Of a stretch of 37,336 nucleotides of DNA, positions 1-37,336 are shown piece after piece; the stretch's first letter is position 1; each line of letters opens with the position of its first letter. The notes beneath the pieces were generated by a model that saw only the letters and a program-made list of their open reading frames with translations, had not been told where the DNA came from and did no database searches. The position numbers were made by a program, and so were the translations under genes. This DNA comes from a virus, in the UHGV virus genome UHGV-1375320, one strand, 5' to 3'.

Positions 1-882
1 AGTTATTCCAGATATGATAACAATGACAATTACAAGCTAGTAACAAATCAAAAAGTTATTGCTCAAGTACATCAAGAATTAATCTTAATACTTAGAAGCA
101 TAACAGGGGAACTTGTAAATGGAGAAGATATTAGAGTAGTCAGTCTGGACTTATCAAACCAATTAGAAGTTGAGAACATTAGAAATTATTATCAAGTTTT
201 AAATTTGATATATAGAGCATATAAAAATATCTTTCCAACTTCAAGAATGTATTTTGATACAGATAATAAAAAAAGATTAGAACTTGATGGAGTAGACTTT
301 AAAGAGAGAGGGAAAAAGTCCAGAGAAACAACTAGCTATTTTAAAATCTATTCCAAAAGAAAAGAGATGGAAGATACAGGAAAAGAGGTAGCTAAAAAAA
401 GACAAGCATTAAGAGGAGAGTTGACGCTAAGACCTCCACACCTCAAGACCTATAACTTAAATCATTTAGGTGGAATAACTAAAGATAATCTAGCTGCAGC
501 ACTTAGAAAAACAATAGGAGCAATACTTACAGAGCAGATAGTCAAAGAGTTAAACTATGACATCGCAGAATTAAAAAAGATAGTTGTTCCAGGAACTAAG
601 GGGTTAGCAGAAAGACTTATGATGAAAGAGTATTTAATATTCGATACTAGATTATTAGATATTACAGTAACAGACAAGTTATTAGGAGCAACACAAAGAA
701 CTGCAAGAAGACAGAAAAAGAAAGTTATTGAAAAGCTGGAAGAGTTAGAAAAACTTGGAGAGATTAAAAAGTCTTATTCCAAGAACTTTGAAAGATTGGA
801 AAAACTACTCAAAAAAATAGCTAAAGTTAGTATAAAAATAAGACTAGGAGAAGAGGGGGCAGAGTTAGAATGGCAGGAATAA
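1..882 (+). CDS. Putative replication initiation protein, Rep_trans-like (5'-truncated; frame open from window edge)
   Basis: Frame 1 has no stop from nt 1 to TAA at 880-882; the ORF track only begins at the first Met (205). The block TSYFKIYSKRKEM...RGELTLR resembles the conserved Rep_trans 'Y.RIYDK..E....R.E.ELR' region. The C-terminal LGATQRTARRQKKKVIEKL resembles a sigma region-4-type HTH. It overlaps the terS start by 13 nt. Confidence 0.3.
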   Translation, partial: SYSRYDNNDNYKLVTNQKVIAQVHQELILILRSITGELVNGEDIRVVSLDLSNQLEVENIRNYYQVLNLIYRAYKNIFPTSRMYFDTDNKKRLELDGVDFKERGKKSRETTSYFKIYSKRKEMEDTGKEVAKKRQALRGELTLRPPHLKTYNLNHLGGITKDNLAAALRKTIGAILTEQIVKELNYDIAELKKIVVPGTKGLAERLMMKEYLIFDTRLLDITVTDKLLGATQRTARRQKKKVIEKLEELEKLGEIKKSYSKNFERLEKLLKKIAKVSIKIRLGEEGAELEWQE

Positions 883-5956: not shown

Positions 5957-6385
5957 ATGAGTGGTAAATATGAAAAAATGAAAAAACTTATCCAAGATAT
6001 AGAGGGGGTAGGATTTGAATGTGAAGCTGGATATTTAAGTGGTCTTGTTGCTTGGCAAGAATTAAAAAAAGAGATTGAAGAGCTTGGGGCTATGGAAAGA
6101 CTAGAACCTCGTTGTGTAGATATAAGACTAAAAAATCATATAGAAAGAATGGAGGTGGAATTACAAGAACTAGGAGATAAAATTGAAAGATTAGCTATTT
6201 TCATAGAAAGAGAAAAAATAGAGCCTAAGTTTACAGATGAAGAGCAAAGAATTAAATTAGTATTGCAAAAAGAATATATGATTAATTATGCTGGTATTTT
6301 AAAACAAAGAATATATTGCGATACTTTAAAACTTAATAAAGACCCAGAAGTGGAAAATCATATAGAATTATTACAAAGAAAGTAA
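5957..6385 (+). CDS. Hypothetical protein (coiled-coil rich)
   Basis: 142 aa ORF with a GGAGG RBS. Followed by a CTAGAGC/GCTCTAG hairpin at 6410-6428. Confidence 0.4.
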   Translation: MSGKYEKMKKLIQDIEGVGFECEAGYLSGLVAWQELKKEIEELGAMERLEPRCVDIRLKNHIERMEVELQELGDKIERLAIFIEREKIEPKFTDEEQRIKLVLQKEYMINYAGILKQRIYCDTLKLNKDPEVENHIELLQRK

Positions 6386-7371: not shown

Positions 7372-7686
7372 ATGGTAAAAGTAAAATTTAAAAGCGACCC
7401 ACATTTTTACATAAAAGAAAAGAGTGGAATAAAAAATAATACAGTAAGAATATATGAGAAATTTTCAGAAGTAGATGAGAAAGATGAGGGATTTGCTATA
7501 TTAAAGCAAATGTATAAGAAACAATTAGAGAATGAAAATAAGTTACCAGATGATGAGGAATTATACATTGAAATAGTAAAAGCAAGTTCTGGAGAAAGTT
7601 TTATCAGAAAAATAAGAGATATAACAATTTTTGAAAATAATTTTGAAATGATTTTTATAATAACTTGGGAACATGAAGAGGTGTAA
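7372..7686 (+). CDS. Hypothetical protein
   Basis: 104 aa ORF, tightly packed. Confidence 0.4.
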   Translation: MVKVKFKSDPHFYIKEKSGIKNNTVRIYEKFSEVDEKDEGFAILKQMYKKQLENENKLPDDEELYIEIVKASSGESFIRKIRDITIFENNFEMIFIITWEHEEV

Positions 7687-8216: not shown

Positions 8217-8642
8217 ATGTTACACGGTATTACTGGCTTATCTCATGGCTTATTCAAAAATAATAAAGAAAAAATGGAAGAAGCAAGAAGAAAAGATTTT
8301 GAAAAATACACTGGAGCAAAACAAGTAAATACTAAAGTAAAAAATGATAAATTAATAAAATCGAATCCAGATATAAAACTCTTATTAGAAAACCAAAGTG
8401 TTGACGTCAACAAAATGATAGCAGTAGAGGAATTATCAGAGTTGCAAAAAGAAATCTGTAAGGATTTAAGAGGTTTTGATAGGAGAGGAGAGATAAAAGA
8501 AGAGATGGCAGACGTTTATATCTGCCTCCAACTTTTAAAAGAAATTTATAACTTTGATGATGAAGAGTTAGAAGAAGAGTATAAAAGAAAAATGGATAGG
8601 AATATAAAAAGAATCAAAGTCAAAAACAAGGAGATGAAATGA
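8217..8642 (+). CDS. MazG-like nucleoside triphosphate pyrophosphohydrolase domain protein
   Basis: 141 aa. AVEELSELQKE...EEMADVYICLQLLKEIYNFDDEELEEEYKRKMDRN matches the MazG 'EE.GEL....E..D.L..L..LA...G.D' helical metal-binding pattern. Confidence 0.4.
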   Translation: MLHGITGLSHGLFKNNKEKMEEARRKDFEKYTGAKQVNTKVKNDKLIKSNPDIKLLLENQSVDVNKMIAVEELSELQKEICKDLRGFDRRGEIKEEMADVYICLQLLKEIYNFDDEELEEEYKRKMDRNIKRIKVKNKEMK

Positions 8643-8718
8643 CAAGATCTAAAATTATATTAATGTTAGTAGTAGCAGTAATAGTAATTGATGTATTACA
8701 AAAGATAAGGGGGTAGAG

Positions 8719-8949
8719 TTGGAAAAAGTAAAAAATAAAGATTTAATCAATTACAACCCTAAATATCATTTTAATCATAATAAACCTTGGACAAGTAAAG
8801 ACTTAGAGTATGCACTAGATTATAGAAATGATTTAAAAGATATTAGTTTGAAACTGGGTAGAACTATAAGTTCTATATTGCAAAAAAGAAAATTACAAAG
8901 ATTTTGGAAAGAAGCAGATAAATACTCAAGAGTTAAAATTATACCTTGA
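8719..8949 (+). CDS. Hypothetical protein
   Basis: 76 aa. TTG start with an AAGGGGG RBS. Confidence 0.3.
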   Translation: MEKVKNKDLINYNPKYHFNHNKPWTSKDLEYALDYRNDLKDISLKLGRTISSILQKRKLQRFWKEADKYSRVKIIP

Positions 8950-8967
8950 GGTATAAAAGGTGGATAA

Positions 8968-9180
8968 ATGGAAAGAAAACAATGTCCTTGGGGAGTTGCA
9001 CCTATTGTTTTAGAAAAAATACAAGAAATAGAAAGAATTAAAAAAATTTCTAAAAGGTGTGATGAGTTGATAGCTAAAAACTTAGAAAAAAACAGAAGAT
9101 ATTATGAAGGATTGACTACACCAGCACCAAAAGGAGAAACAAAGGTAAGATTTTATAGAATGGGAGAAGATAAGAAATGA
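8968..9180 (+). CDS. Hypothetical protein
   Basis: 70 aa ORF with an AAAGGTGG RBS. Confidence 0.35.
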   Translation: MERKQCPWGVAPIVLEKIQEIERIKKISKRCDELIAKNLEKNRRYYEGLTTPAPKGETKVRFYRMGEDKK

Positions 9181-9371
9181 CATTAAAAGAGTTAGAGGAG
9201 AAAATAAAAGAGATAAAAGAAGATGGAGCAAAGTATAACATTGAAGATTTTGAGGTAGAAATCTTTGGATATACTAGGAATGGAATTGTTAAACTAAAAA
9301 TTGAGAATAGATATGGAAATCCAAGTTTTGATATAGGAGAGAGAAAAGTATGGATAGCTGCACAAGATTAG
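9177..9371 (+). CDS. Hypothetical protein
   Basis: 64 aa with ATGA overlap to the previous gene. Confidence 0.35.
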   Translation: MTLKELEEKIKEIKEDGAKYNIEDFEVEIFGYTRNGIVKLKIENRYGNPSFDIGERKVWIAAQD

Positions 9372-9428
9372 AAACAAAGAGACAGCAGTTAAAGACTAAA
9401 AAAAATAACTAAAAGGAGAATAGGGGAA

Positions 9429-10010
9429 ATGAAAAAGATAGTGATAGAATTTGCAAGAGATGTTTTGGAGCTAAAAGGTTATGAAGATGAAAAAATAAAA
9501 ATAATTGATGTAACTGGAATTAGTAAAGTAAAAAAAGAAGTAAAAAAACCAGGAATTTTTCAAATTAAAAAAGCGTACGAGGAAGTCGTATATGTTGATA
9601 AAATCACTTACGTTAAAACTTTAATCAAATCAACTGGGGAAACTATAACATTTTCATTTCGTGGTATTGACTCTTTAGTTTATCACATGAGAGAATTGTT
9701 TGAAAAATTATATTCTGATGAAGTTATTGGATTTACTGGTAGAAATGTTGCTAACTTCATAAGAAAAAATTTAGATAATGAATTTATAATTCTAACTTCT
9801 TTAGAAGAGTTTACTAGAATTGGGGGAGCTTTATGTGGTAATGGTTCTGATAAAATTAAAACAGGAATAATTATTCCTAAAGAACATTTAAAAGAAGTGG
9901 CAAACGGATTTGAAAAAATTAACTTTTGGTTTACAAATATAATAGGTATGGAAAGCACAGATGGAGAATCAATTTGCCTAGAAAGTGTATTTTCGGATTG
10001 GCCGTGGTAA
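9429..10010 (+). CDS. Hypothetical protein
   Basis: 193 aa with an AGGAGAATAGGGG RBS. No recognisable motif. Confidence 0.4.
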   Translation: MKKIVIEFARDVLELKGYEDEKIKIIDVTGISKVKKEVKKPGIFQIKKAYEEVVYVDKITYVKTLIKSTGETITFSFRGIDSLVYHMRELFEKLYSDEVIGFTGRNVANFIRKNLDNEFIILTSLEEFTRIGGALCGNGSDKIKTGIIIPKEHLKEVANGFEKINFWFTNIIGMESTDGESICLESVFSDWPW

Positions 10011-10247
10011 AATGAAAACCTGGAATAAAAAGAAAAAACCAAAACATCATAGCAAAGTAAAATATAAAGTTTATCCAAAAAGAAAAGGAATAGTAAGTAC
10101 AGTTAGAGAGTGCAGATGTAAAAAATTTAAAAATTGTTATCTTGTACCAAAACAATTTTTTCTAATTATTTTAACTACTAATAGGAAATCTAAAAAATAT
10201 AAAAAAGTATCAAAACAAACCTGTAAAAAAAAGTATTAAAAGTACAT

Positions 10248-10277
10248 TGTTTTTTATCTCTAAAAATAGTATAATTA
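10248..10277 (+). promoter_or_regulatory. Putative sigma70 promoter for the serine recombinase gene
   Basis: TTGTTT (10248-10253), 17 bp, TATAAT (10271-10276), about 50 nt upstream of the recombinase ATG. It lies inside a 320-bp AT-rich non-coding leader. Confidence 0.4.
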
Positions 10278-10329
10278 TGGTATTAAGTGAAACGAACGAC
10301 AGAATAAATACTAAAAGGAGAGATAAAAG

Positions 10330-11025
10330 ATGATATATGGTTATTGCAGAGTATCTACAAAAAAACAAAATATTTTAAGACAGGTGGAAAATATCATAAA
10401 GATATATTCAACTGCTAAAGTATTTCAAGAAGCATATACAGGAACTACAACAGATAGAAAAGAATGGAGTAAGCTAAAAAAAATGGTTAAACCCGGAGAT
10501 ACAATTATATTTGATTCTGTTAGTAGAATGAGTAGAAATGCAGAAGAGGGAATAAAAGAATATTTTAATTTTGTAGAAAGAGATATTGAACTTATATTTT
10601 TAAAAGAGGGATATATCAATACAGCCCTTTATAAAAAAGCTTTAGAGAATAAAATAGATTCAACAGGAAATAAAATAGCTGATATATACATAGACGCAAC
10701 CAATGAAGTATTGAAGATATTAGCTCAAGAACAAATTAAAATAGCATTTGACCAGGCTGAAAAGGAAGTATTAGACCTTAGAGAAAGAACAAAAGAGGGA
10801 CTAAGAGTTACCAAAGCTAAAGGAACTGTATTAGGTAGAAAACAAGGAGATACTTATACTACCAAGAAAGAAAAGGAGATGAGAGAGAAAATAAAAAAAC
10901 TAGCTAAAGATTTTGGAGGAAATCTTAAAGATATAGAAGTCTTTACACTGCTAGGAATAACTAAGAATACATATTACAAGTATAAGAAAAATATTATATT
11001 AGAGGAGGCACAAAATGAGAAATAA
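10330..11025 (+). CDS. Small serine recombinase (resolvase/invertase family)
   Basis: 231 aa. MIYGYCRVSTKKQ carries the catalytic Ser in the canonical G(Y)xRVST context. The size is typical (~185-230 aa). The C-terminal LLGITKNTYYKYKK is an HTH. It has its own promoter and a long upstream leader. Confidence 0.8.
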   Translation: MIYGYCRVSTKKQNILRQVENIIKIYSTAKVFQEAYTGTTTDRKEWSKLKKMVKPGDTIIFDSVSRMSRNAEEGIKEYFNFVERDIELIFLKEGYINTALYKKALENKIDSTGNKIADIYIDATNEVLKILAQEQIKIAFDQAEKEVLDLRERTKEGLRVTKAKGTVLGRKQGDTYTTKKEKEMREKIKKLAKDFGGNLKDIEVFTLLGITKNTYYKYKKNIILEEAQNEK

Positions 11026-23024: not shown

Positions 23025-24404
23025 GTGTTTAAGCAAATGTTAAATTTTAAAAAAGAGTATTTTAAGTTAGAAGAGAATAGACAACAATATACTACTAGCT
23101 TTTCAGACTTAATGACAAGTTGTGAAGTTTACGGAAAAAAACAAAATCCTATAACTAGCACAGCTTTTATATTCCTTATACCTAAAGATTATTACACATA
23201 CAATGCTGGAAACATTGATTTTACTAACTACCCAGATGGCATATGGAATGATTACACAGATATTAAGATAGTTAAGTCTGAACCTTATTTTGATTTAGAT
23301 TTTACTTTTAGTAGTACAGGAGATATTACACCAGAAAATCTAAATAATATGTTTACTAAAATAAAAGCTGCAATACTTGGAACAGAAAAAGAAATTATAA
23401 AATCTCAATTATTTGTAGATAGTGGAATACCAAAACAATTAGGTTTACCAGATTTACCAAAAGGTTCTATCTGGTATATGTCAGATGATGGGATAGCTAC
23501 TTATCCTGTAACTACACTATTTGAGAAATATCAAGAGTTGCTCAATAAGATTTATGAAGATACAAAAAAAATATTACTTGAAGATTTGGATAATAGAGTA
23601 AAAGAGCTAGTTATTCAATTAGAAAAAGATTTAAAAGAAATTATTGATAATTATCTTAAAACAGATAGTTATTTAAAATTAGATAAATATACACAAGAAA
23701 AAATAGAAGAAGCAGAAAAAGAAATCCAAGATTATATAGACTATCATATGCAAGATTTAAAAGGAGAAAGAGGGTACTCAATAGCAAGTGTTGGTTTTAA
23801 TAAAGAATTACCAGAAGGAAACGTCTATACAGTCTACCGTGAAGACGGAGAAATTATAGGAGAATTATTAGCACGAAGAGGTCCTCAAGGTATTCAAGGC
23901 AATGATGGACCAGAAGGACCGAAAGGAGAAAGAGGAGAAAGAGGATTCAAAGGAGATAAAGGGGACCAAGGAGAAAGAGGGGAAAATGGACCTCAAGGTA
24001 TTCAAGGAGAGCAAGGAATACAAGGAGAAGTTGGACCTCAAGGTCCTCAAGGAATAACAGGTCCTCAAGGTATTCAAGGAATACAAGGAGAACAAGGTAT
24101 TCAAGGAGAAAGAGGACTTCAAGGACTAAAAGGCGAACAAGGCGTTCAAGGAATACAAGGAGAACAAGGACCTAAGGGAGAGCAGGGAGATATCGGACCT
24201 CAAGGTCCTCAAGGAATACAAGGTCCTAAAGGAGATAAGGGAGATAAAGGAGATAATGGAACTGCTGTAATTACTCCTATAAATAGTCAGTACATATTCC
24301 AAATAGAAGATGGAAACTTAGTTGTGTATTATAACGAGAATGATACTCAACCAAATTTTTCAATAGATGAAGATGGAAATTTAGTATTAGAAATTTTAGA
24401 ATAA
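23025..24404 (+). CDS. Collagen-like repeat protein, putative tail fibre
   Basis: 459 aa. About 125 residues of perfect G-X-Y triplets ([19 protein letters not shown]...[10 protein letters not shown]). It lies downstream of terL and next to a second collagen-like fibre gene. Confidence 0.65.
23878..24262 (+). repeat. Collagen G-X-Y coding repeat tract (fibre gene 1)
   Basis: Iterated 9-nt-periodic units ggtcctcaaggtattcaagga and ggagaacaaggaatacaagga. Several 20-40 nt stretches are shared verbatim with fibre gene 2. Confidence 0.85.
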
Positions 24405-24417
24405 GGAGGTTTTAATT

Positions 24418-25530
24418 ATGCCAAAATTAATTATAGGTAATGTTGTAGGTCCTCAAGGTCCTAAAGGAGAACAAGGAGATATCGGACCTCAAGGTCCTAA
24501 AGGAGAACAAGGAATACAAGGGGAACAAGGTATTCAAGGTTTACCTGGTGCAAAAGGAGAACAAGGAATACAAGGTCCTCAAGGTCCTAAAGGAGATACT
24601 GGAGAGCAGGGTATTCAAGGTCCTAAAGGAGATAAGGGAGATACTGGACCACAAGGTCCTCGAGGTCCTCAAGGTATTCAAGGACCTAAGGGAGACAAAG
24701 GGGAACAAGGTATAACTGGAAATACTGGTCCTAAAGGTCCTAAAGGAGATACTGGAGAGCAGGGTATTCAAGGTCCTAAAGGAGCTGATGGAGTAGGAGT
24801 AAAAAGTATAACATTTAAGAATACTAATGAAGATGGTGGAAATGTTTATACTGTGACTTTAACTAATGGTAGCACATATGATTTTACTGCCCCTAGAGGT
24901 CAACAAGGGATACCAGGACAAAGCGGTCAACCTGGGACTACCGATTATGAAAAATTAATAAACAAACCAGATGTATATACTAAAACTGAAACTAATAATT
25001 TATTAGATGGTAAATTAGGTAAAGAAGATAAAGCGAAGAGTGCTACAACTGCTGATAGTGCTGGTGCTTGTACAGGGAACTCTGCTACTGCTACAAAATT
25101 ACAAACTGCTAGAACTATCAACGGAGTTAGTTATGATGGTAGTGCCGATATTACAATAGCTGATAATACAAAACTTCCAAAATCCGGTGGTACTATTAAT
25201 GGAAACTTAACAGTAATAGGAGCTATTGTTTCAAACGGAGAAGTTACGGCTTATTCAGATAGAAGATTAAAAACTGATATAACAAAGATAACTAATGCTC
25301 TTAAAAAAGTAAATCAAATCAATGGGTACACATTCACTATGTTAGGTACAGGGCAAAGACAAGCTGGAGTTATAGCTCAAGAAATCGAGAAAGTATTACC
25401 AGAAGTTGTAGTTCAAAATGAGGATAACGGGTATCTAACAGTAGCATATGGAAATATAGTAGCTTTATTAATAGAAGCTATTAAAGAGTTGAGTAATGAA
25501 GTTAAAGAATTAAAAGGGGGTAGGGTATAA
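24418..25530 (+). CDS. Collagen-like tail fibre with C-terminal intramolecular chaperone (peptidase S74) domain
   Basis: 370 aa. G-X-Y tract at residues ~10-125. C-terminal [12 protein letters not shown]...[20 protein letters not shown] matches the S74 auto-cleaving chaperone signature (SD.RLK.NI ... G.IAQE....PE) found on phage fibres and endosialidases. Confidence 0.7.
24448..24795 (+). repeat. Collagen G-X-Y coding repeat tract (fibre gene 2)
   Basis: Same repeat family as 23878-24262. For example, ggagaacaaggagatatcggacctcaaggtcct occurs in both genes. Confidence 0.85.
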
Positions 25531-27937: not shown

Positions 27938-27981
27938 AATGTGAGCTTATGAGCCTTAGAATAGGGTAGGTCAAAACAAAA

Positions 27982-28010
27982 AGAGAGGTAAATATATACC
28001 TCTCTTTTTT
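27982..28010. terminator. Bidirectional intrinsic terminator between convergent holin and partition operons
   Basis: AGAGAGGTA / TACCTCTCT 9-bp stem, loop AATATA, with a T-run on the + side and an A-run on the other side. Confidence 0.6.
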
Positions 28011-28038: not shown

Positions 28039-28296
28039 CTATTTTAATTTTAAATCAACCTTAAAATCAATTAAGTCAAAATAAAATATTTTATCTGTAC
28101 TGTAATAACTTTCTGTATTTGCTTGGAACTCATCTAATTTTAAAGTAATATCTCCAACAATAATTTTATATCCATCTTGTATGTCTATAATATCTAAAAC
28201 TTCTACATCATTTTTAAAATATGTTATCAACCCATTTGTTATAGTTATACTTTGAATGTTTTCTCTATTTCCTTTTAATAAATCCTTTAATTTCAT
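28039..28296 (-). CDS. Hypothetical protein (last gene of rep-par operon)
   Basis: 85 aa with ATGA overlap to the upstream gene. Confidence 0.4.
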   Translation of the reverse strand: MKLKDLLKGNRENIQSITITNGLITYFKNDVEVLDIIDIQDGYKIIVGDITLKLDEFQANTESYYSTDKIFYFDLIDFKVDLKLK

Positions 28297-28970
28297 TAGC
28301 TCAACCCCTTTATCTTTTCTTTTAGTTCAGCCTTAACAGTTTTCAATTCTTTCAACTCTTCCTCTAATTTTCTAATTTTCGCCTCTACCTCCGACAGTCT
28401 GGATACCAGCTTATCTTTTTCAGATTCCTCTACTATCTCGGCATCTTCTATTTCGAGAGCTCTCGAAATAGCTTTTTTTATCCCTTGAGCTGTTCTTATT
28501 TCACCATTTACCACTCTTGCTATAACATCACTTGGTGCTTTTTTGTTTGTTATTTGCTTAATCTCTGCGTCTGATAAAGTCTGTATAATTTTACTTTCTG
28601 GATATTCTAAAGATAGTTTATATCTTCCTCTTAGTAATGACACTTGGTCTTTATTGAATCCTAAAGCTTGGTACCATTCCATATAACTTTGAGAATTTTC
28701 AGAGTATCTATCAAAAAGCCCTCTAGCTTCATCTAACATTCTACCTGTTTCTATTGCTAATTTCCCAACTTCTTTTTTATTTGTAATTATTTTTTTCTCT
28801 ATATTTATCAGTTCTCTTACATCATCTTGGGAAAAGTTTTCCAATACTGAATAATCAAATAAGAGTTCAGTTGTTACTAATTCTTTAGTGGTTTGTGTTT
28901 CTTGTAGTGTTGCTGGTTTAGTTATATTTCTAATACCTAAACTACTTCTTTTTATTGTTGGTTTTCCCAT
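28296..28970 (-). CDS. Putative partition adaptor/centromere-binding protein (ParB analogue, non-canonical)
   Basis: 224 aa, immediately downstream of parA and overlapping it by 19 nt. Helical N-terminal half plus a C-terminal coiled coil (KLVSRLSEVEAKIRKLEEELKELK). No ParB GERRxRA motif, so the family is unassigned. Confidence 0.3.
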   Translation of the reverse strand: MGKPTIKRSSLGIRNITKPATLQETQTTKELVTTELLFDYSVLENFSQDDVRELINIEKKIITNKKEVGKLAIETGRMLDEARGLFDRYSENSQSYMEWYQALGFNKDQVSLLRGRYKLSLEYPESKIIQTLSDAEIKQITNKKAPSDVIARVVNGEIRTAQGIKKAISRALEIEDAEIVEESEKDKLVSRLSEVEAKIRKLEEELKELKTVKAELKEKIKGLS

Positions 28971-29761
28971 ATCTCTAACAACTCCTTAGTAAGATTTTTA
29001 AAGTCTTTAGCTCCATTACTTGTAGGGCTATATTGTCCTATAAAATATCCATCTCTAGCACAATATTTTAATTTTCCATTATCTCTAATTTGAGTTTTTA
29101 AAATATTAGGATATCCCTCTCTAATTTCTTCTATGTCTTTTAAAATATCTTTATCAAGTGGCACCTGGTTAAAATATCCAAGGTGTATAAATGGAGTGCT
29201 TAAATTTTCTTTTAAAGCTTCTATAAATTGCAACATTATATTTAACCCTTGAACACTATATATATGTGGTATTATTGGAGTTAAAACATAATTGCTAAGA
29301 GATAACACAGCTCTTTCTAAAGAATCTATACTAGGTCTACAATCAAATATTACATAGTCATAATCTAATTTTTCAAGCTCTGATTTTAGATTGAAATATA
29401 TCATTTCTTGGTCCCATTTATCCATTGTTAAATCTAGGTTTCTTAGGTCATAACTACCTTTGATAAAATCTAAAATATATCTTCCTTTTTCTACTTCATT
29501 AATACCTGTATCTTTATTTTCTACTATTTTTAGTTCATGTATTTGTATTATATTATTTGCTAAAGACTTTTCTTTTAAAGCTTTGAATAAGTCTTTTTCT
29601 TCATCATCAAATATAAAACTTTGTGTTAAGTTCTGCTGATAGTCACAATCTACCAGCAATATTTTTTTATTAAAATTAAGTGCTAACATTCCAGCGACTT
29701 CCCTTGCCCCTGTTGTTTTTCCTGTTCCACCCTTTTGATTTATAAATGATACTACTTTCAT
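28952..29761 (-). CDS. parA: ParA/Soj-family partition ATPase
   Basis: 269 aa. The deviant Walker A KGGTGKTT is at the N-terminus (MKVVSFINQKGGTGKTTGA). Walker A' (LLVDCDYQ) and Walker B (VIFDCRP) contexts are present. Strong AAGGGGG RBS. Confidence 0.8.
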   Translation of the reverse strand: MKVVSFINQKGGTGKTTGAREVAGMLALNFNKKILLVDCDYQQNLTQSFIFDDEEKDLFKALKEKSLANNIIQIHELKIVENKDTGINEVEKGRYILDFIKGSYDLRNLDLTMDKWDQEMIYFNLKSELEKLDYDYVIFDCRPSIDSLERAVLSLSNYVLTPIIPHIYSVQGLNIMLQFIEALKENLSTPFIHLGYFNQVPLDKDILKDIEEIREGYPNILKTQIRDNGKLKYCARDGYFIGQYSPTSNGAKDFKNLTKELLEIWENQQ

Positions 29762-30717
29762 TTTACCCCCTTAATATGATTAAATATGTAACTAAAACTT
29801 CTAATCTCAATATTGATATTTTTGTAACATGAAATCAAGCCTTTTTTCAATTGCTCATATGGAAAGTTCTCCATAAGTTTTCCAACATTTTCAAGTGTTA
29901 AATAAGGTTCTATAAACCTATTTTTTCTAGCTTTTTCTAAAGCTTTTTCCAAATCTTCTAACTGTTCAAATGTTAATGATTCAACTTTTTCAGCCTCTTT
30001 TATTTCTGTTTCAGTTCCATCTTTATCTAGCACTTCCATTTGCTCTATATCCCAACTCAAAATTATTTTAGTAATAAATTTTCCTGTTCTTACTCTTTCC
30101 ATTTTTAGATTTTTTATATTAGTTTTCTCTGCTAGTTCTTCTGCAGCTTTTTTTATTATCTTAGTTTCTACATCTACCCATCTATATTGAGTATTTAAAA
30201 TTTTTAAAAATTCATCTGGTGCAAATTCCCAAGACTTTAAATTTTTATAACTCATAACTATTTGATAGAGCCTCTTGGAATGTCTACCCTTTAAACCTGT
30301 AAATTCTAGTAATTCATGTCTTGTAAAATTATTGCTTAAATTAAAAAAAAGTGGGATAAAATCTTTTTTTAATTCAAATATAATTTCTGTTTTATCTTCT
30401 GTATACATCAAAGTTTCAAATATGTGTTTATGCAGCTTGTACCCATCTTTTTTTATTTGAACACTTGTATTAAAAATGTTTTTCAAAGCCTCTTCTATTC
30501 TTTTGGTACTTACATTTCCTTGAACCATTTTTTTTATGACTTTAGGGTCTAAAAACAAATTTACATTCTCATTTGTATTTACATTCATATGGTCTTTAAT
30601 TTTTTTTCTAGCAGCATAAGCTAAAGTTACAATTAAATCAAGTTCATAACTTCCAAACTCATTGAAGCTGGTAGCAAAATCTTTTGAGTATTCTACAACT
30701 TCATTTTTAATTTCCAT
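29758..30717 (-). CDS. Rep_3-family (iteron-binding) plasmid replication initiator
   Basis: 319 aa. LKGRHSKRLYQIVMSYKN and FLKILNTQYRWVDVETKIIKKAAEELAEKTNI match the winged-helix Rep_3 signatures (S.Y..RLYELL ; F...L.......+..+.A..EIN..T.I). Iterons lie directly upstream, and its stop overlaps parA. Confidence 0.6.
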   Translation of the reverse strand: MEIKNEVVEYSKDFATSFNEFGSYELDLIVTLAYAARKKIKDHMNVNTNENVNLFLDPKVIKKMVQGNVSTKRIEEALKNIFNTSVQIKKDGYKLHKHIFETLMYTEDKTEIIFELKKDFIPLFFNLSNNFTRHELLEFTGLKGRHSKRLYQIVMSYKNLKSWEFAPDEFLKILNTQYRWVDVETKIIKKAAEELAEKTNIKNLKMERVRTGKFITKIILSWDIEQMEVLDKDGTETEIKEAEKVESLTFEQLEDLEKALEKARKNRFIEPYLTLENVGKLMENFPYEQLKKGLISCYKNINIEIRSFSYIFNHIKGVK

Positions 30718-30806
30718 GTCTTACCCCCTTTTCACTCTGATATAATTTTAACTTATATTTTCTTTTTATACAACATTTTTTTATTTTTTTTCACACTATT
30801 AATAAA

Positions 30807-30943
30807 CTGACAAAACTTCACACTATTGACAAAACTTCACACTATTCTGACAAAACTTCACAGTATAGTCTGACAAAACTTCACACTATACCCCTCTATT
30901 TCTGACAAAACTTCACACTATTCTGACAAAACTTCACAGTATC
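30807..30943. repeat. Iteron array (six direct repeats of ~21 bp), putative oriV/Rep binding sites
   Basis: CTGACAAAACTTCACACTATT at 30807, 30828, 30848 (ACAGTAT variant), 30871, 30903 and 30924, spaced 20-23 bp with one 32-bp gap. A seventh diverged copy lies at 31056-31075 (TGACAAAACTTCGTGGTATT). The array is flanked by an AT-rich TAAACT-repeat stretch at 30975-31045. Confidence 0.7.
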
Positions 30944-31198
30944 TTGTTTCTAGCTCTCTAAAATTAAGAGCTGGAGAGGACTGTAAACTCTATAAACTAT
31001 TATAAACTATATTATATATAAACTCTCTAAACTATTTTAGAGATTTTTTTATTTTTGACAAAACTTCGTGGTATTATAATTTTAAAAAGATATTGACTTA
31101 TACCCAAAAGTATATTATACTACTGTATCCAAATTTTTAACCCCATATAAGATGCTTTTTTTAATCGTCATATGTTATTCGAGATTCTTTAATAAAAG

Positions 31199-31224
31199 TG
31201 GCAGGAATAAACCTGCCATTTTTA
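31199..31224. terminator. Intrinsic terminator at the end of the recombination operon
   Basis: TGGCAGG / CCTGCCA stem, loop AATAAA, T-run on the + side. It overlaps the SSAP stop codon. Confidence 0.5.
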
Positions 31225-32181
31225 TTTACTTGTTAGTAACTCTTTTAACTCTTCATATTCTTTATTATTCAATCTTTCAAGTAATACTTTATTATATTTT
31301 CTTTTACACTCCATAAGTAAAATACCTTGTTTATCTAATTTTAATAACTCTTGGATTTGCTCTTCTGTAATATCACTTACTGGAGTAACTTCTTTTAAAT
31401 CAGATATTTTTAATTGCCCCTCTTTAATACCATTATAAGCTAATTTTAAATTAACTAGATGGCTAGAAGTCCAGCTCTCATATGGACAGTTTAAAAAATT
31501 TTCTAGTTCTTGCTTAGAAAGATTTAATTTATTTTCCAAGAAAATTAATATCTGTTCTTTAGCTTGTGAAATATCCTCTATGCTTTCAATCTCTCTTTCC
31601 ATAGTTGTTTTTATCTCTTCTATGCAGGAATCTAAAATATAATTAGGTATTAAATTCAAGATACAACCTCTTAAAAATCTAGCTCCATAACTTGCTTTCA
31701 TCTCGTATTGGTCCCTCATATCTGTTAAAACATAAGCACCTTTTTTTGTATATCTTTTCATAGATACATCAAATTGCTTTGTAGTTTTGATATTGTTTTC
31801 AACGTCCCAGGCATAAGCTAACATTGTAGATTTTCCATCATCTGTATCTAATTCTATTACCGAGTATTGAATATTACCCCAAGCTCTTGCAACTGCTTCA
31901 GCAAATCTTATAGTTAAACCTTGCACAACTTCTCCACCTCTAGGAAATGAATATAAGGCAGTATCAGCAAAATTCTTTCTTTTACATAGCTCTAGTATTT
32001 TATTTTCTGCTTTTATTTCATCTCTAGGAAATTGTTTTGCTAAAAATACTGCTGCCTTTACTTCCTCAAGTAATCTACTTTCAATCCCCATTTCCATTTG
32101 TTCTGCCTTTATCTCTTTAACAGGCTTCATCTCTGAAACCTGTTTCTTTCCCATCATATTGTTTTTAGCTATTACTTCCAT
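31222..32181 (-). CDS. RecT/Red-beta-family single-strand annealing protein
   Basis: 319 aa, immediately downstream of a YqaJ exonuclease, which is the classic exo+SSAP pair. The core LYSFPRGGEVVQGLTIRFAEAVARAWGNIQYSVIELDTDDGKSTMLAYAWDVENN fits the RecT-family annealing domain. Confidence 0.55.
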   Translation of the reverse strand: MEVIAKNNMMGKKQVSEMKPVKEIKAEQMEMGIESRLLEEVKAAVFLAKQFPRDEIKAENKILELCKRKNFADTALYSFPRGGEVVQGLTIRFAEAVARAWGNIQYSVIELDTDDGKSTMLAYAWDVENNIKTTKQFDVSMKRYTKKGAYVLTDMRDQYEMKASYGARFLRGCILNLIPNYILDSCIEEIKTTMEREIESIEDISQAKEQILIFLENKLNLSKQELENFLNCPYESWTSSHLVNLKLAYNGIKEGQLKISDLKEVTPVSDITEEQIQELLKLDKQGILLMECKRKYNKVLLERLNNKEYEELKELLTSK

Positions 32182-32182
32182 A

Positions 32183-33142
32183 TTATCCTCCTATTGTTAA
32201 AGCTCCACGTTTATTTAATTTTGCTATAAGTCCGTTTCCAAGTTCCATAAGTGTAACACCTTTTTCTAGCATTTCTTTTTTTATCATAAGTTTTATACTA
32301 TCAGCTTTTGGTTTTGCTTTCTCTTCAATTTCTTTTAATTCTAGCATTGAGTTAAGTAGCTCATCAGCTAGGTTAAGTGCTAGTTCTGACTTTATTTTTT
32401 CAGTAGTTTCTTTTGGAATCTCATAAGCCATTCCAAGTGCTTCAGCTTCTGCTTTATTTCCTATCAATTCTGGTTCTATATTATTTTGGAATTTCTTCCA
32501 AAACTCTTTAGCTAAAGAAAACATATAGTCTATGAACTCTTGGTCTTTAACTACTGTAAAAACTTTGGTAAATCTGTTGTTTATCCAACCAAGTATATAC
32601 ATTTTTTCTTTTCCTGTAACTTCTAAAATCCATTGGCATTGACTATAATATTCATCTGGTACAGTGTCCCCACTCCATTTATCCCATTGGAAACTATCTC
32701 CAGTTTTACACTCCATAGGGAACCAACCCTCATCAGTTGAAACCCAGCCATCTGGGGTACAAGTTGCGAAATCATATTCTTTATGCTTTATAACTTCATC
32801 TCCTGGAATAACTTCATAAACTTTAAATTTTGCTTTTTCTGGAAATTTAGCTCTTATAAAATCTTCTGCAAAATGTCCAAACTCTAATTTATCTTGAGTT
32901 ATTTCACTGAATTGAGGTTCGTATTCTCCTTTTAAACTTTTATACAATAACCAAGGACTTGAATATTCTGGTTTTTTATCTATCCAACCTTTTCTATATC
33001 TGTCAACTTCTACAAGATTATGGATAGAAGAGGCACCGATTACACGGTGCTTTAACCATTCCCCTCTATTTGTAGTATCTCCCTTGAATACTGTTATTCC
33101 ATTATGCTTTGGTATGTCATAAATACTCATTTGATTTACCAT
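32183..33142 (-). CDS. YqaJ-type (lambda Exo-like, PD-(D/E)xK) recombination exonuclease
   Basis: 319 aa. GEWLKHRVIGASSIHNLV matches the YqaJ N-terminal 'EW...R.G.ITAS' motif. Conserved acidic/Lys residues are spaced downstream (FGHFAEDFI, CTPDGW, ECKTGD). Confidence 0.65.
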   Translation of the reverse strand: MVNQMSIYDIPKHNGITVFKGDTTNRGEWLKHRVIGASSIHNLVEVDRYRKGWIDKKPEYSSPWLLYKSLKGEYEPQFSEITQDKLEFGHFAEDFIRAKFPEKAKFKVYEVIPGDEVIKHKEYDFATCTPDGWVSTDEGWFPMECKTGDSFQWDKWSGDTVPDEYYSQCQWILEVTGKEKMYILGWINNRFTKVFTVVKDQEFIDYMFSLAKEFWKKFQNNIEPELIGNKAEAEALGMAYEIPKETTEKIKSELALNLADELLNSMLELKEIEEKAKPKADSIKLMIKKEMLEKGVTLMELGNGLIAKLNKRGALTIGG

Positions 33143-34129: not shown

Positions 34130-34576
34130 CTATGCTATCGCTTGTAGGTTGCTTCCTTGTACTCTTTGCCAACCATATTTTTGTTTTAACTCTTCATAAT
34201 CTCCCTTGAATGTTCCTTTTCCTTTTTTCTCTCCAAAGTACCATTTTTTTCTTTTAGCACTCCATCTAAAACCAAGTTCTTTTAACTGTTCCTTGTATAA
34301 GAAAGTATTACCAGATACCCATATCCAAGAGCCTACAACATCAATCTCTAAACCATGGAAATGTATTATTTTCTTTAGTATCTCCATAACCTCTGGGGCT
34401 ATCTCTTCCCCTGCTTCCCTTGCTTGTTGTTTAAATCCCTCAAGTTGTATTCTTTCATACTCTGCCATCATCTCTTTGAAGTTCTCTTCGTTTCCACCAT
34501 GGTCTGGGTGTAATCTCTTACATAATTCTCTATATTGTTTTTTTAAATCCTCGTTACTGTTAAAGTATTTATACAT
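34130..34576 (-). CDS. J-domain (DnaJ N-terminal domain) protein
   Basis: 148 aa. KQYRELCKRLHPDHGGNEENFKEMMAEYERI contains the invariant HPD tripeptide in the canonical helix II-III context of J domains. It is the first gene of the leftward early operon. Confidence 0.6.
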   Translation of the reverse strand: MYKYFNSNEDLKKQYRELCKRLHPDHGGNEENFKEMMAEYERIQLEGFKQQAREAGEEIAPEVMEILKKIIHFHGLEIDVVGSWIWVSGNTFLYKEQLKELGFRWSAKRKKWYFGEKKGKGTFKGDYEELKQKYGWQRVQGSNLQAIA

Positions 34577-34759: not shown

Positions 34760-35416
34760 ATGGAAAAAAAGACAGGAGAAACTTTAAAAAATATTAGAAA
34801 AAAATATAACATTACAGGAGAAAAGATGGCAGAAATTTTAGGGTGTAGCACTCAATTTATTTATGCAATAGAAAAAAATAAAAATAAATTTCCTGTAAAA
34901 AAATTAGAATTGATAAAAAATATTGTATCTGAAATCGATTATTTCGATTTAATAGAAGCAATAAAATTTGATACTGAACCTGCAAGCCTTAAAAACGAAG
35001 TTTTAAAAATCCAAAGTATAGAAGAGATAAAACAAAAGAAGATACCTTTTTATCCAGATATTGAAGCTTCAGCAGGGTATGGAAGATTTAATGATAGTGA
35101 AATTGTAGAGTTCTTAGAAGTTCCAGAAGATTTAGCAAGACCAGGAAATATAGCTATAAGAGTTGCTGGAGATTCTATGGAACCAGAGATTAAAGACGGA
35201 GATACTATTGTAATAGATACAAATTGTATAGAATGTATTTTAAATAAAATAATAGTTGTTAATTATCAAGGGGCAGTATATTTAAAAAAATATGTTGAAG
35301 AAAATGGAAAAATATTTTTAAAAAGTATAAATCCATATTACCCTAAAATTAGAATAGGAAACAGAGAAGAACTTAGAGTTATTGGGAAGTTAAAAAGTGT
35401 TATGAGGTATTATTAG
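34760..35416 (+). CDS. CI/LexA-like phage repressor (XRE HTH + peptidase S24)
   Basis: 218 aa. N-terminal HTH LKNIRKKYNITGEKMAEILGCSTQFIYAIEKNK. The C-terminal S24 domain has Ser in AGDSMEP and Lys in GAVYLKKY. Confidence 0.8.
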   Translation: MEKKTGETLKNIRKKYNITGEKMAEILGCSTQFIYAIEKNKNKFPVKKLELIKNIVSEIDYFDLIEAIKFDTEPASLKNEVLKIQSIEEIKQKKIPFYPDIEASAGYGRFNDSEIVEFLEVPEDLARPGNIAIRVAGDSMEPEIKDGDTIVIDTNCIECILNKIIVVNYQGAVYLKKYVEENGKIFLKSINPYYPKIRIGNREELRVIGKLKSVMRYY

Positions 35417-36075: not shown

Positions 36076-36109
36076 ATTGCTTGAAACTTAGTAAAAATAG
36101 TACTTCACA

Positions 36110-36180
36110 AATACAACTAAATTAATTGTACAACTTATTTACTTTTTTAATCTTGACAAAACAATTAATTTAGTTGTATT
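36110..36180. promoter_or_regulatory. Perfect 20-bp inverted repeat flanking a TTGACA -35 box (operator/promoter of the HTH gene)
   Basis: AATACAACTAAATTAATTGT (36110-36129) and its exact reverse complement (36161-36180), 31 bp apart. TTGACA at 36153-36158 lies between the arms; TATTTT follows 18 bp downstream. Confidence 0.5.
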
Positions 36181-36214
36181 TTATATTATATAAAATATTG
36201 TGAGGTAAAATTTT

Positions 36215-36430
36215 ATGGATATAAATATAAGAATAGCAGAAAATATAAAAAAAAGAATAAATAAGAAGTACAAAACAACTAAAGAAGCTAGTATTGCTGG
36301 AGGTTGGGGAGAAAAATATTTAACTAATATGATAAGCGACTTAAAGAATAAAAATAATTTTCCTAGTATTCCCCAACTTATAAAAATAGCTAATCTTTGT
36401 AATTGTGATATAAAAGAATTTTTCAAATAA
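36215..36430 (+). CDS. XRE-family HTH transcriptional regulator (Cro/C1-like, 71 aa)
   Basis: IAENIKKRINKKYKTTKEASIAGGWGEKYLTNMIS plus PSIPQLIKIANLCNCDIKEFF is a typical HTH_3 fold. It lies downstream of the 20-bp inverted-repeat operator. Confidence 0.5.
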   Translation: MDINIRIAENIKKRINKKYKTTKEASIAGGWGEKYLTNMISDLKNKNNFPSIPQLIKIANLCNCDIKEFFK

Positions 36431-37129: not shown

Positions 37130-37336
37130 GTGGGTTGGATTGTAGATACTGCAAGTATAAGTTATCCAGCCAAGTTGAATGAACTAGACTTCATAATTCA
37201 ATCAACTAGCATACTACTGGAAGAAGAGGCACGAAATGAAAATAAAAAAATAATATTTAAAAATACCAGATTAAAAAAATATAACTGGTTAAACTACATC
37301 AGCATTGATGAGAAAAAAAATATATTAATCTCTTTC
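37130..37336 (+). CDS. Hypothetical protein, 3'-truncated at window edge
   Basis: GTG at 37130 directly after AAAAGGGGG. The frame stays open for 69 codons to the end of the window (VGWIVDTASISYPAKLNELDF...). Confidence 0.3.
   Translation, partial: MGWIVDTASISYPAKLNELDFIIQSTSILLEEEARNENKKIIFKNTRLKKYNWLNYISIDEKKNILISF

Follow-up and report, generated by a model that had tools for sequence, protein, structure and literature searches.

A podovirus-like temperate phage of the human gut with a Rep_3/iteron replicon and a ParA partition cassette: a probable phage-plasmid

Introduction

A temperate phage genome that carries a plasmid-type replication initiator, an iteron array and a ParA ATPase raises the question of how its prophage is inherited, as a plasmid or by integration, or whether these genes serve lytic growth instead. 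Most known phage-plasmids come from cultured Proteobacteria, Bacillus, Clostridium and Mycobacterium, and short-tailed ones are few. Likewise, few tailed phage-plasmids belong to the Podoviridae and Fusobacterium is not mentioned in the main text of the account by Pfeifer et al. (2021), while a search of the literature for a phage-plasmid from Fusobacteriota turned up none. Here, the locus is analysed within virus genome UHGV-1375320 (the window, 37,336 nt). We propose that it belongs to a podovirus-like temperate phage, the prophage of which is quite probably kept as a low-copy circular plasmid rather than integrated.

Results

The window is a complete circular phage genome

The window represents the entire circular genome (~37.3 kb) of an uncultured temperate podovirus-like phage, since its ends join into one gene and the sequence runs unbroken across the junction in two independent assemblies, namely L004 (99.99% identity) and L034 (95%). 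The 5' part of the junction-spanning gene (37,130-37,336, plus strand) and its 3' part (1-882, plus strand) rebuild a 362-aa gene, the product of which is identical in 362/362 residues to that of a contiguous gene in L002 (PHROG 36664, no assigned function), so that the window is a circular genome cut within a gene. Circularization at the size of the element, which the original prediction had set as a test, is thereby established. Neither a terminal direct repeat nor tRNAs were found in the window. The source JGI contig measures 37,391 bp, 55 bp more than the window, a difference that may hint at a k-mer overlap trimmed from its ends.

The identical Rep protein is present in 161 assembly blocks, while 259 contain an allele of the partner from the same phage; overall, the phage occurs in more than 400 blocks. 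The longest contigs of these all measure ~36-38 kb, without any above 50 kb, and neither host flanks nor an integrase were found in those seen, an outcome in favour of the original prediction, which had asked for a search for an attachment site or integrase elsewhere on the contig. The cut points vary among ten contigs of 36.4-38.1 kb, and one long-read polished contig of the phage measures 36,880 bp. One contig assigned to the phage is 49.4 kb long. A relative with a Rep of 48% identity lies on a 73.8 kb contig, of which the viewed 31.5 kb (11.7-43.2 kb) are all phage, with one rep and one portal copy. Whole-window near-identity DNA searches of phage and plasmid collections gave no match, and no relative was found in GTDB species-representative genomes scanned with the Rep and with the partner alignment. 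Stand-alone contigs of ~37 kb are equally expected from free or replicating phage DNA.

Virion module and lysogeny switch

The full virion, packaging and lysis modules that had been predicted are present (portal, capsid, tail proteins, terminase, collagen-like fibres, endolysin and holin). The portal is of the T7 gp8 type (PF12236, 8.3e-29), with at most 24% identity to the portal of any cultured phage, and is followed by a 219-aa protein, the capsid, tail proteins (PHROG 394 and 376) and then proteins of 708 and 1637 aa, an order that agrees with the T7-like arrangement of portal, scaffold, capsid, tail tube and internal core and with the short-tailed module suggested earlier. A single-subunit RNA polymerase and a DNA polymerase, as in T7-like or Autographiviridae-type phages, were not found in any ORF; judged by gene content, the T7 likeness is confined to the virion module.

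A CI/LexA-like repressor with an HTH and an S24 autopeptidase domain is encoded at 34,760-35,416 on the plus strand (HTH_3; Peptidase_S24, 2.8e-24; PHROG 4 'transcriptional repressor', 2.4e-33), as had been noticed before, and a Cro-like HTH gene is also present. From its domains, the S24 repressor would be the lysogeny switch, which makes a prophage state expected; it would keep the lytic genes silent until it is cleaved in an SOS-type manner. Neither a tyrosine nor a large serine integrase was detected in any ORF scanned, in agreement with the original prediction, which had, however, overlooked a small serine recombinase (10,330-11,025, plus strand).

Rep initiator and origin region

The rep gene (29,758-30,717, minus strand) encodes a 319-aa initiator with two winged-helix domains (WH1 and WH2), both of which score above the Pfam gathering thresholds (Rep3_N, 5.2e-16, 59.7 bits against a cutoff of 22.4, profile positions 2-140 of 141; Rep3_C, 4.4e-07, 30.5 bits against 21.1), so that the profile check supports the predicted membership in the Rep_3 family (PF01051/PF21205). 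Further matches are PHROG 4402 'replication initiation protein' (7.8e-15) and, weakly, the NCBIfam repM and RepE models, whereas a search against the PDB returned nothing. The best plasmid matches are the Reps of F. varium, Cetobacterium and Leptotrichia, with 23-29% identity. Rep is the sole replication protein detectable in the genome, and no DNA polymerase, helicase or primase was found in profile scans of all ORFs.

Upstream of rep, six exact 19-bp direct repeats (30,808-30,942, minus strand) form the tandem iteron array that the original prediction had pointed out, and are the predicted Rep binding sites of the origin. All six copies have one orientation and read TGACAAAACTTCACA[C/G]TAT on the plus strand, or ATA[C/G]TGTGAAGTTTTGTCA in the direction of rep, with start-to-start spacings of 19, 21, 23, 32 and 21 bp; the number of matches expected by chance is 0 (100 shuffles). 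A seventh, isolated copy in the same orientation with three mismatches (31,056-31,074, minus strand) lies across the -35 hexamer of a promoter-like site on the minus strand (from 31,061 to 31,034, TTGTCA-16-TAAAAT) and is a candidate autoregulation site. Between the array and rep, the composition profile reveals an A+T-rich stretch with a GC content of 11.7% (30,740-30,799), which contains a half-iteron, TTCACACTAT, at 30,790-30,799 and may serve as a DNA-unwinding element and/or a proximal rep promoter. A second A+T-rich block (GC ~17%) harbors five TAAACT[A/C]T repeats with a period of 9-16 bp (30,984-31,035), so that 5 of the 16 copies in the window fall within 52 bp, all on one strand. This cluster follows the Rep allele and not the Par allele, being present in L006 and absent in L023, and is a candidate host-factor or centromere-like site, or a second unwinding element.

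The same initiator family, with WH1 and WH2, is found in iteron plasmids such as pPS10 (RepA), F (RepE), R6K (pi) and Acinetobacter plasmids (RepM), where direct repeats of ~19-22 bp likewise adjoin rep beside A+T-rich DNA; in contrast to these, the Rep described here, with at most 29% identity to any plasmid Rep, belongs to the sole replicon of a complete phage. In the proposed mechanism, Rep would bind the six iterons upstream of its own gene, open an adjacent A+T-rich stretch and recruit the host replisome for theta replication, and the copy number would be kept in check by the isolated iteron at the upstream promoter and by handcuffing of iterons.

ParA, its partner and the operon

The parA gene (28,952-29,761, minus strand) lies where the original prediction had placed it and encodes a short, type Ib-like Walker ATPase of 269 aa that lacks an N-terminal DNA-binding domain. 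The profile matches expected for it were obtained (Pfam AAA_31, 6.8e-35, 121 bits against a cutoff of 27; CbiA, 1.1e-10, 42 bits), as was PHROG 164 'ParA-like partition protein' (2.8e-44), and residues 10-16 form the deviant Walker A motif KGGTGKT (KGGxxK[ST]). The NCBIfam ParA_partition match (1.6e-23) reaches 83 bits, below the equivalog cutoff of 180, and the assignment is therefore one at the family level.

The gene downstream (28,296-28,970, minus strand) encodes a 224-aa protein of an unnamed family, presumed to be the centromere-binding partner of ParA. It had been called ParB-like; a downstream partner gene overlapping parA was indeed found, but it is not a ParB by sequence, as no ParB/Srx (CTPase) domain was matched in Pfam, NCBIfam or PDB profiles, nor was ParB/Spo0J (PF02195). 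In the structural model, residues 1-33 form a disordered basic N-terminal tail, residues 48-178 a helical core and residues 184-223 a C-terminal coiled coil. The core shows only faint fold matches to the DNA-binding domains of ParB, KorB and SopB, which are not significant in Foldseek against the PDB, and PDB searches with its sequence and with profiles returned nothing beyond coiled-coil noise. Members recognizable by sequence occur solely in plasmids and phages of Fusobacteriota, and a homologue with 45% identity overlaps parA on the complete circular Cetobacterium plasmid NZ_CP143325.1 of a cultured Fusobacteriaceae isolate; the pairing of parA and partner is kept on this plasmid and in every related locus inspected.

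Type Ib partition partners are ribbon-helix-helix proteins. The systems of TP228 (ParF/ParG) and pSM19035 (delta/omega) resemble the present one in pairing a short Walker ParA with a small dimeric DNA-binding protein encoded behind it, the basic N-terminal tail of which is flexible, as is predicted here, yet the partner is modelled as all-helical with a long coiled coil. Compared with the HTH proteins ParB and KorB, its core may be weakly similar in fold, and the ParB CTPase domain is lacking. The co-transcribed ParA and partner would segregate the plasmid copies, with the partner binding a putative centromere and stimulating ParA via its basic N-terminal tail.

A fourth, translationally coupled gene, orf85 (28,039-28,296, minus strand), completes the operon and has no match in Pfam, PHROG, NCBIfam or PADLOC scans. 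Its protein is identical in L023, the Rep, ParA and partner alleles of which differ, so by this comparison the conservation of orf85 follows the phage backbone and not the Rep/Par allele. The organization as one minus-strand operon was correctly foreseen: the genes overlap by 4 nt (rep/parA), 19 nt (parA/partner) and 1 nt (partner/orf85), and hairpins lie at both ends, namely a bidirectional terminator at the boundary with the recombination operon (31,191-31,226) and a hairpin with 16-nt arms of 94% complementarity where the lysis cassette and the rep-par operon converge (27,978-28,009), which is likely a bidirectional terminator as well. The location between lysis and early/recombination genes also holds, with holin and endolysin on one side and a YqaJ exonuclease and a PHROG 3657 gene on the other. 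No convincing centromere repeats were seen downstream of the operon, and no toxin-antitoxin or addiction module was found in the genome. A PADLOC scan for defence systems gave no match for the operon genes, and a defence-system reading of ParA and its partner was rejected on this basis.

The small serine recombinase

The recombinase is a 231-aa enzyme of the resolvase/invertase type (Pfam Resolvase, 2.9e-20), whose gene has its own conserved promoter and sits within the virion gene block. It is 60% identical to a resolvase located 2 kb from the Rep-ParA-partner module of a myovirus-type phage family, and by this association it is likely the multimer resolvase of the plasmid form, transcribed separately from the operon. 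Its top PHROG match is named 'DNA invertase' (PHROG 125, 5.5e-36) and its best NCBIfam match is the Mpi invertase family, as would suit a Cin/Gin-type host-range invertase, in which case multimers would be left to the host Xer system and the plasmid-prophage model would otherwise be unchanged. We consider this unlikely, as no inverted repeats flank the gene or nearby segments, no inverted gene order or orientation polymorphism occurs among eight genomes, and the fibre genes are 12 kb away.

Exchange of Rep/Par alleles and the host

Four Rep alleles were seen, namely that of the window, two that share ~52% and 48% identity with it, and one more at 27%. The three others, found in related genomes, have their own, differing iterons at the same place with a period of 21-22 bp, so that four alleles correspond to four distinct iteron sequences and the iterons co-vary with Rep. 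Rep/Par cassettes replace one another in this phage backbone and are shared with the myovirus-type family (43-49 kb), in which the set of Rep, ParA, partner and resolvase recurs. All of the nearest plasmid relatives are from Fusobacteriota, and the host is probably a gut Fusobacterium and not a low-GC Firmicute.

Discussion

Phage-plasmids in the sense of Pfeifer et al. (2021) combine complete phage functions with plasmid replication and partition genes on one replicon, and this is what the genome holds; tyrosine and large serine integrases as well as host flanks were not found, while a small serine recombinase is present. Its place as an added member of the known phage-plasmid class is well supported. 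Plasmid inheritance is the most likely state of the prophage because an integrase is lacking and a full plasmid kit is present; within this model, we infer copy control, the centromere, the role of the resolvase and the host.

As no other replication protein is encoded, lytic replication must start at the same Rep_3 origin. It could hence be argued that Rep and its iterons are the phage's own lytic or theta origin, comparable to lambda O and ori-lambda, that the phage is virulent or persists in a carrier or pseudolysogenic state, and that ParA and its partner position replicating DNA or exclude competitors, with no stably inherited plasmid prophage. The uniform genome length of the contigs, as virion or replicating DNA would give, and the lack of an addiction module would agree with this, whereas the CI/LexA-type S24 repressor and the Cro-like gene imply lysogeny, a genuine plasmid carries a homologue of the ParA-partner cassette, the conservation of this cassette with allele turnover in two unrelated virion types fits a maintenance role, and the phage is frequent in assemblies of bulk gut metagenomes. 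Such a life cycle without a plasmid prophage thus appears quite improbable.

Less probable still is an ordinary integrating prophage, in which the small serine recombinase would be the integrase and the Rep/Par functions would act transiently after induction or infection. A secondary match of the enzyme to PHROG 95 'integrase' (3.9e-11) points in this direction, as does a distant relative whose portal shares 45% identity; it occupies 141-163 kb of a contig of 196 kb, is possibly integrated and has a serine recombinase at the syntenic position. This enzyme is, however, just 30% identical to the one studied here, in none of the >400 blocks does the phage lie on a contig longer than 50 kb or next to host flanks, and serine integrases are large (at least 450 aa), whereas 231 aa and the far stronger PHROG 125 match indicate the resolvase/invertase type. 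Finally, a linear phage-plasmid of the N15 type was rejected, as no profile scan revealed a protelomerase and the genome assembles as a circle, and so was an SSU5-type label, for which there is no homology.

Of the P1/N15/SSU5 type named in the original prediction, it is therefore P1 that remains, and in its logic only. Like P1 with RepA and the incC/incA iterons, ParA-ParB-parS and Cre/lox, the plasmid prophage proposed here would be circular and non-integrating; its initiator would be controlled by iterons and its lytic switch by a repressor, and it would have a partition pair of the ParA type and a site-specific recombinase usable for resolving multimers. By sequence, no relationship between the two was detected, and P1 is a myovirus of 94 kb with a tyrosine recombinase, whereas the present phage is podovirus-like, of 37 kb, and has a small serine enzyme, a short ParA and a partner without the ParB N-terminal domain; moreover, neither a separate lytic replicon nor an addiction module was found in it.

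Extrachromosomal mycobacteriophages of Cluster A are reported to carry parABS together with origins of the RepA type (Wetzel et al., 2020; PMC7157519). They are similar in being temperate phages of ordinary size that have partition genes and a protein-dependent plasmid origin instead of an integrase, but differ as siphoviruses of Actinobacteria with canonical ParB/parS and replication modules unrelated to Rep_3. Among podovirus-type phage-plasmids are the prototypic crAssphage (PMC10983915) and, from Klebsiella, members of the F116 community (Pfeifer et al., 2021), in which virion genes of the short-tailed kind also stand beside genes for plasmid replication; crAssphage, too, is prevalent in the human gut and uncultured. 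Their replicons are of the IncFIB type or RepL, in Proteobacteria or Bacteroides, and differ from the one described here.

More tentatively, and in our view short of probable, the swapped cassettes could reflect a guild of gut Fusobacterium phage-plasmids with at least two unrelated virion types (~37 kb podovirus-like and 43-49 kb myovirus-like), which would draw on a common, exchangeable pool of Rep_3/iteron and ParA/partner cassettes and share a resolvase. Rep alleles with identities down to 27% would be swapped in backbones of ~97-99% identity, leaving iteron remnants behind, and the resulting diversification of incompatibility groups might allow co-residence. The partner might then represent a new class of ParA-activating centromere-binding protein, with a ParB-like HTH core and a coiled coil but without a CTPase domain.

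The finding would add a phage-plasmid lineage that is prevalent in the human gut, with hundreds of assemblies, in Fusobacteriota, and with it an unnamed family of ParA partners. The compact replication/partition module of 3.3 kb could seed much-needed Fusobacterium shuttle vectors, and the Rep/iteron allele swaps provide a natural series for incompatibility studies. Prophage finders that rely on integrases and host flanks will misjudge the lifestyle of such phages, as will virome pipelines that call circular contigs of genome length 'lytic'.

The replication and partition operon

The window phage is quite probably a plasmid prophage, a plasmid state that we infer from its sequence. The four minus-strand open reading frames (ORFs) on which the original prediction rested, namely rep (29758-30717), parA (28952-29761), a partner gene (28296-28970) and orf85 (28039-28296), are real and each overlaps its neighbour. 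The Rep_3 and ParA assignments are both backed by profile searches, as the rep product matches Pfam Rep3_N (5.2e-16) and Rep3_C (4.4e-07), exceeding the curated cutoff in each case, while the parA product, in which KGGTGKT is present, matches AAA_31 (6.8e-35), CbiA and PHROG 164 'ParA-like partition protein' (2.8e-44). One hairpin terminator (31191-31226) closes the upstream recombination operon and another (27978-28009) lies between the rep-par operon and the convergent lysis cassette. In some genomes of two related lineages, named by the 52% and 48% identity of their Rep to that of the window, an extra 168-aa ORF with an internal duplication is located between rep and parA (contigs L011, 10918-11424, and L017, 10951-11457); the related contigs L012-L014 are without this insert.

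The predicted tandem iteron array is present upstream of rep, as six exact copies of TGACAAAACTTCACA[C/G]TAT at 30808-30942, followed by a seventh copy with 3 mismatches at 31056-31074; all have the same orientation, and 0 are expected from shuffled sequence. Three further Rep alleles, about 52%, 48% and 27% identical to that of the window, occur in related genomes; each comes with a tandem array of its own in the corresponding place, repeating every 21-22 bp, the units being AAAAGGGAAGTCTTGTCAA (3 to about 10 copies), ATA[C/G]TACGACAnnnTGTAACAA and AAAGGTACAAAATCCA. This co-variation of Rep and iteron is the signature expected of initiator-iteron pairs, and it is much stronger evidence than a repeat array by itself. 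A stretch of 11.7% GC that separates the array from rep would presumably serve in unwinding, the isolated copy at 31056-31074, which covers the -35 of a minus-strand promoter-like site, may act in autoregulation, and a cluster of five TAAACT[A/C]T repeats (30984-31035) could have a role in host-factor or centromere binding.

The 224-aa partner has no sequence match in Pfam, NCBIfam or PDB, and its homologues (41-99% identity) are encoded directly after the parA gene in every locus inspected. An AlphaFold model built with 25 homologues (pLDDT 79) has an N-tail that is disordered (residues 1-33, of which 6 are basic and 2 acidic), a helical core and a C-terminal 40-residue helix with coiled-coil-type sequence matches. 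The plasmid collection contains only two records that match the partner, both from Fusobacteriota (Cetobacterium and Leptotrichia plasmids); in Cetobacterium somerae p6, a complete circular plasmid of 48 kb that was sequenced from a strain in pure culture, the gene for the homologue (45% identity) overlaps one for a ParA. From these comparisons we conclude that the protein is the putative ParA partner of a plasmid-type partition cassette. Of its original description as "ParB-like", the presumed partnership with ParA is retained; by sequence it does not belong to the ParB family, since the ParB N-terminal domain was looked for and not found.

Phage gene content

Profile scans that took in essentially every ORF of the window recovered the virion, packaging and lysis modules and the CI-like repressor that had been proposed. 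These include a T7-type portal (PF12236), capsid, tail proteins (PHROG 394 and 376), proteins of 708 and 1637 aa in the position of internal core proteins, large terminase, endolysin and holin, the recombination pair of a YqaJ exonuclease and a PHROG 3657 protein, a repressor with HTH and Peptidase_S24 domains, and a small Cro-like HTH protein (36215-36430). A short tail would be expected of the virion. Long Gly-X-Y repeats of the collagen type occur in two consecutive fibre genes (23025-25530; Pfam Collagen, 3e-22 and 2e-21), of which the second terminates in a Peptidase_S74 intramolecular chaperone domain. As predicted, no tyrosine or large serine integrase was found in these scans; nor was a DNA polymerase, helicase or primase, hence Rep_3 is the only recognisable replication protein.

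Just upstream of the Cro-like gene, a perfect 21-bp inverted repeat (AAATACAACTAAATTAATTGT / ACAATTAATTTAGTTGTATTT) with a 31-bp spacer containing TTGACA (36109-36181) is probably an immunity operator. The early gene at 34130-34576 on the minus strand encodes a J-domain (DnaJ) and DUF5710 protein, which gives a weak PADLOC match to ZorC 'EH signature' (3.5e-06). Just after the capsid gene, a plus-strand gene (5957-6385) encodes a protein with a crAss001_48/'Sequestin' domain (PF21825, 3.5e-13), a link to crAss-like phage virion proteins.

Circularity and assembly context

The window has no terminal repeat, and its ends are contiguous in three other contigs, so that the proposed check for circularisation comes out in favour of a circle. 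Placing the final 207 nt before the initial 882 nt gives one continuous reading frame, a 362-aa gene that has a good ribosome-binding site and whose product is identical (362/362) to that of a contiguous gene in the independent contig L002. L004, from a second assembly (37,815 bp), runs straight across the junction at 99.99% identity to the window, and an exact 40-nt junction probe matches the interior of ORVB01000388 (37,562 bp), a contig whose alignment with the window spans the junction at 95% identity. The JGI contig Ga0495776_016121 equals the window base for base at the same coordinates and is 55 bp longer.

Samples ERZ1744975 and JGI 3300045988 are among those rich in this phage. Exactly the same Rep is found in 161 indexed assembly blocks, none of which holds a contig of >50 kb with it; the ten longest such contigs measure 36.4-38.1 kb, each with a different cut point. 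An allelic partner protein of this phage is found in 259 blocks, likewise on no contig of >50 kb, and one of these contigs is a polished long-read contig of 36,880 bp. Host flanks with an integrase and attachment repeats, the arrangement that would speak against an extrachromosomal prophage, were not encountered, as no host gene adjoins the phage in the contigs inspected and none of the contigs in these blocks exceeds 50 kb. In a 73.8 kb contig of a relative from the Rep-48% lineage (ERZ27282659:k141_7269), the stretch at 11.7-43.2 kb consists entirely of phage sequence, in which rep and portal each occur once.

A small serine recombinase

A small serine recombinase of 231 aa (10330-11025, plus strand; Pfam Resolvase, 2.9e-20), which the original prediction had missed, is encoded midway through the block of late/virion genes. 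Our best guess is that it would act as a multimer resolvase, because the gene has its own, strongly conserved promoter region (10240-10330), no inverted repeats were found to flank it, and its surroundings keep one orientation across eight genomes. It is possible that the protein is instead an invertase, as suggested by the name of its PHROG 125 match ('DNA invertase', 5.5e-36), a role against which the constant orientation and the missing repeats both count. The putative resolvase is closest (60%) to the allele of an unrelated myovirus-type family. In L036, a syntenic distant relative (portal 45%, capsid 58% and tail protein 65% identical), the recombinase at the same position is only 30% identical. 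L036 lies at 141.5-162.9 kb of a 196,346-bp contig (ERZ27258110 k141_57172) and may be integrated, so that some members of the wider lineage may integrate.

Apparent exchange of replication cassettes

Several modules replace one another in phage backbones that are otherwise about 97-99% identical. These are the Rep, ParA and partner alleles, the recombination pair (YqaJ and PHROG 3657 at window 31222-33142 versus Gp157 and Sak at 8288-9491 in the related contigs L002, L005 and L007), the repressor (S24 type versus short HTH), DnaJ versus a RadC-domain gene carried by sister genomes, and the endolysin (M15-like peptidase versus lysozyme). Rep and Par alleles reassort independently, and in the related contig L006 the window's Rep is combined with another ParA and partner.

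Another relative, L023, has a Rep_3 allele of 374 aa that shares 27% identity with the Rep of the window and 65% with that of a 43-49 kb family of human-gut contigs from ENA (L019-L022), which has baseplate and sheath genes (Baseplate_J, sheath initiator). The ParA and partner of this myovirus-type family are about 50% identical to the window's, and its Resolvase is 60% identical to the window's serine recombinase. Two iterons of the window type persist in L023, upstream of the array that belongs to its Rep (7574-7666, compared with window 31056-31074), and the homology breakpoint follows directly after them, which looks like the scar of a replicon-cassette exchange. Besides Rep_3, ParA, partner and Resolvase, the myovirus-type family encodes a second, RepA_N protein. 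It also has a tyrosine recombinase set among Gp10_C tail-fibre fragments of opposite orientation. The order of these fragments varies from contig to contig, which hints at a shufflon-like switch of the fibre.

Probable host and relation to known phage-plasmids

The best plasmid matches of Rep are from Fusobacterium varium, Cetobacterium and Leptotrichia (23-29% identity), UniRef names Fusobacterium mortiferum for a partner homologue of the myovirus-type family, the window has a GC content of 30%, and samples, where labelled, are human gut metagenomes. Since neither Rep nor partner was found in GTDB species-representative genomes, the assignment of the host to Fusobacterium is no more than probable.

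The element qualifies as a phage-plasmid when judged by the operational criteria of Pfeifer et al. (2021; PMC7969092). According to that paper Podoviridae are few among the tailed phage-plasmids, and Fusobacterium is absent from its main text. Full-text literature searches yielded no description of a Fusobacterium phage-plasmid, phage and plasmid collections held no record of near-identical DNA, and the portal is <=24% identical to that of any cultured phage. In function, the element resembles P1 in its iteron-controlled initiator, ParA pair, recombinase and repressor, and also mirrors the integrase-less Cluster A mycobacteriophages (PMC7157519); it is homologous to neither. The kind of element is already known, whereas its lineage, host phylum and partner family are new, and replication and incompatibility cassettes look to be exchanged among co-resident elements.
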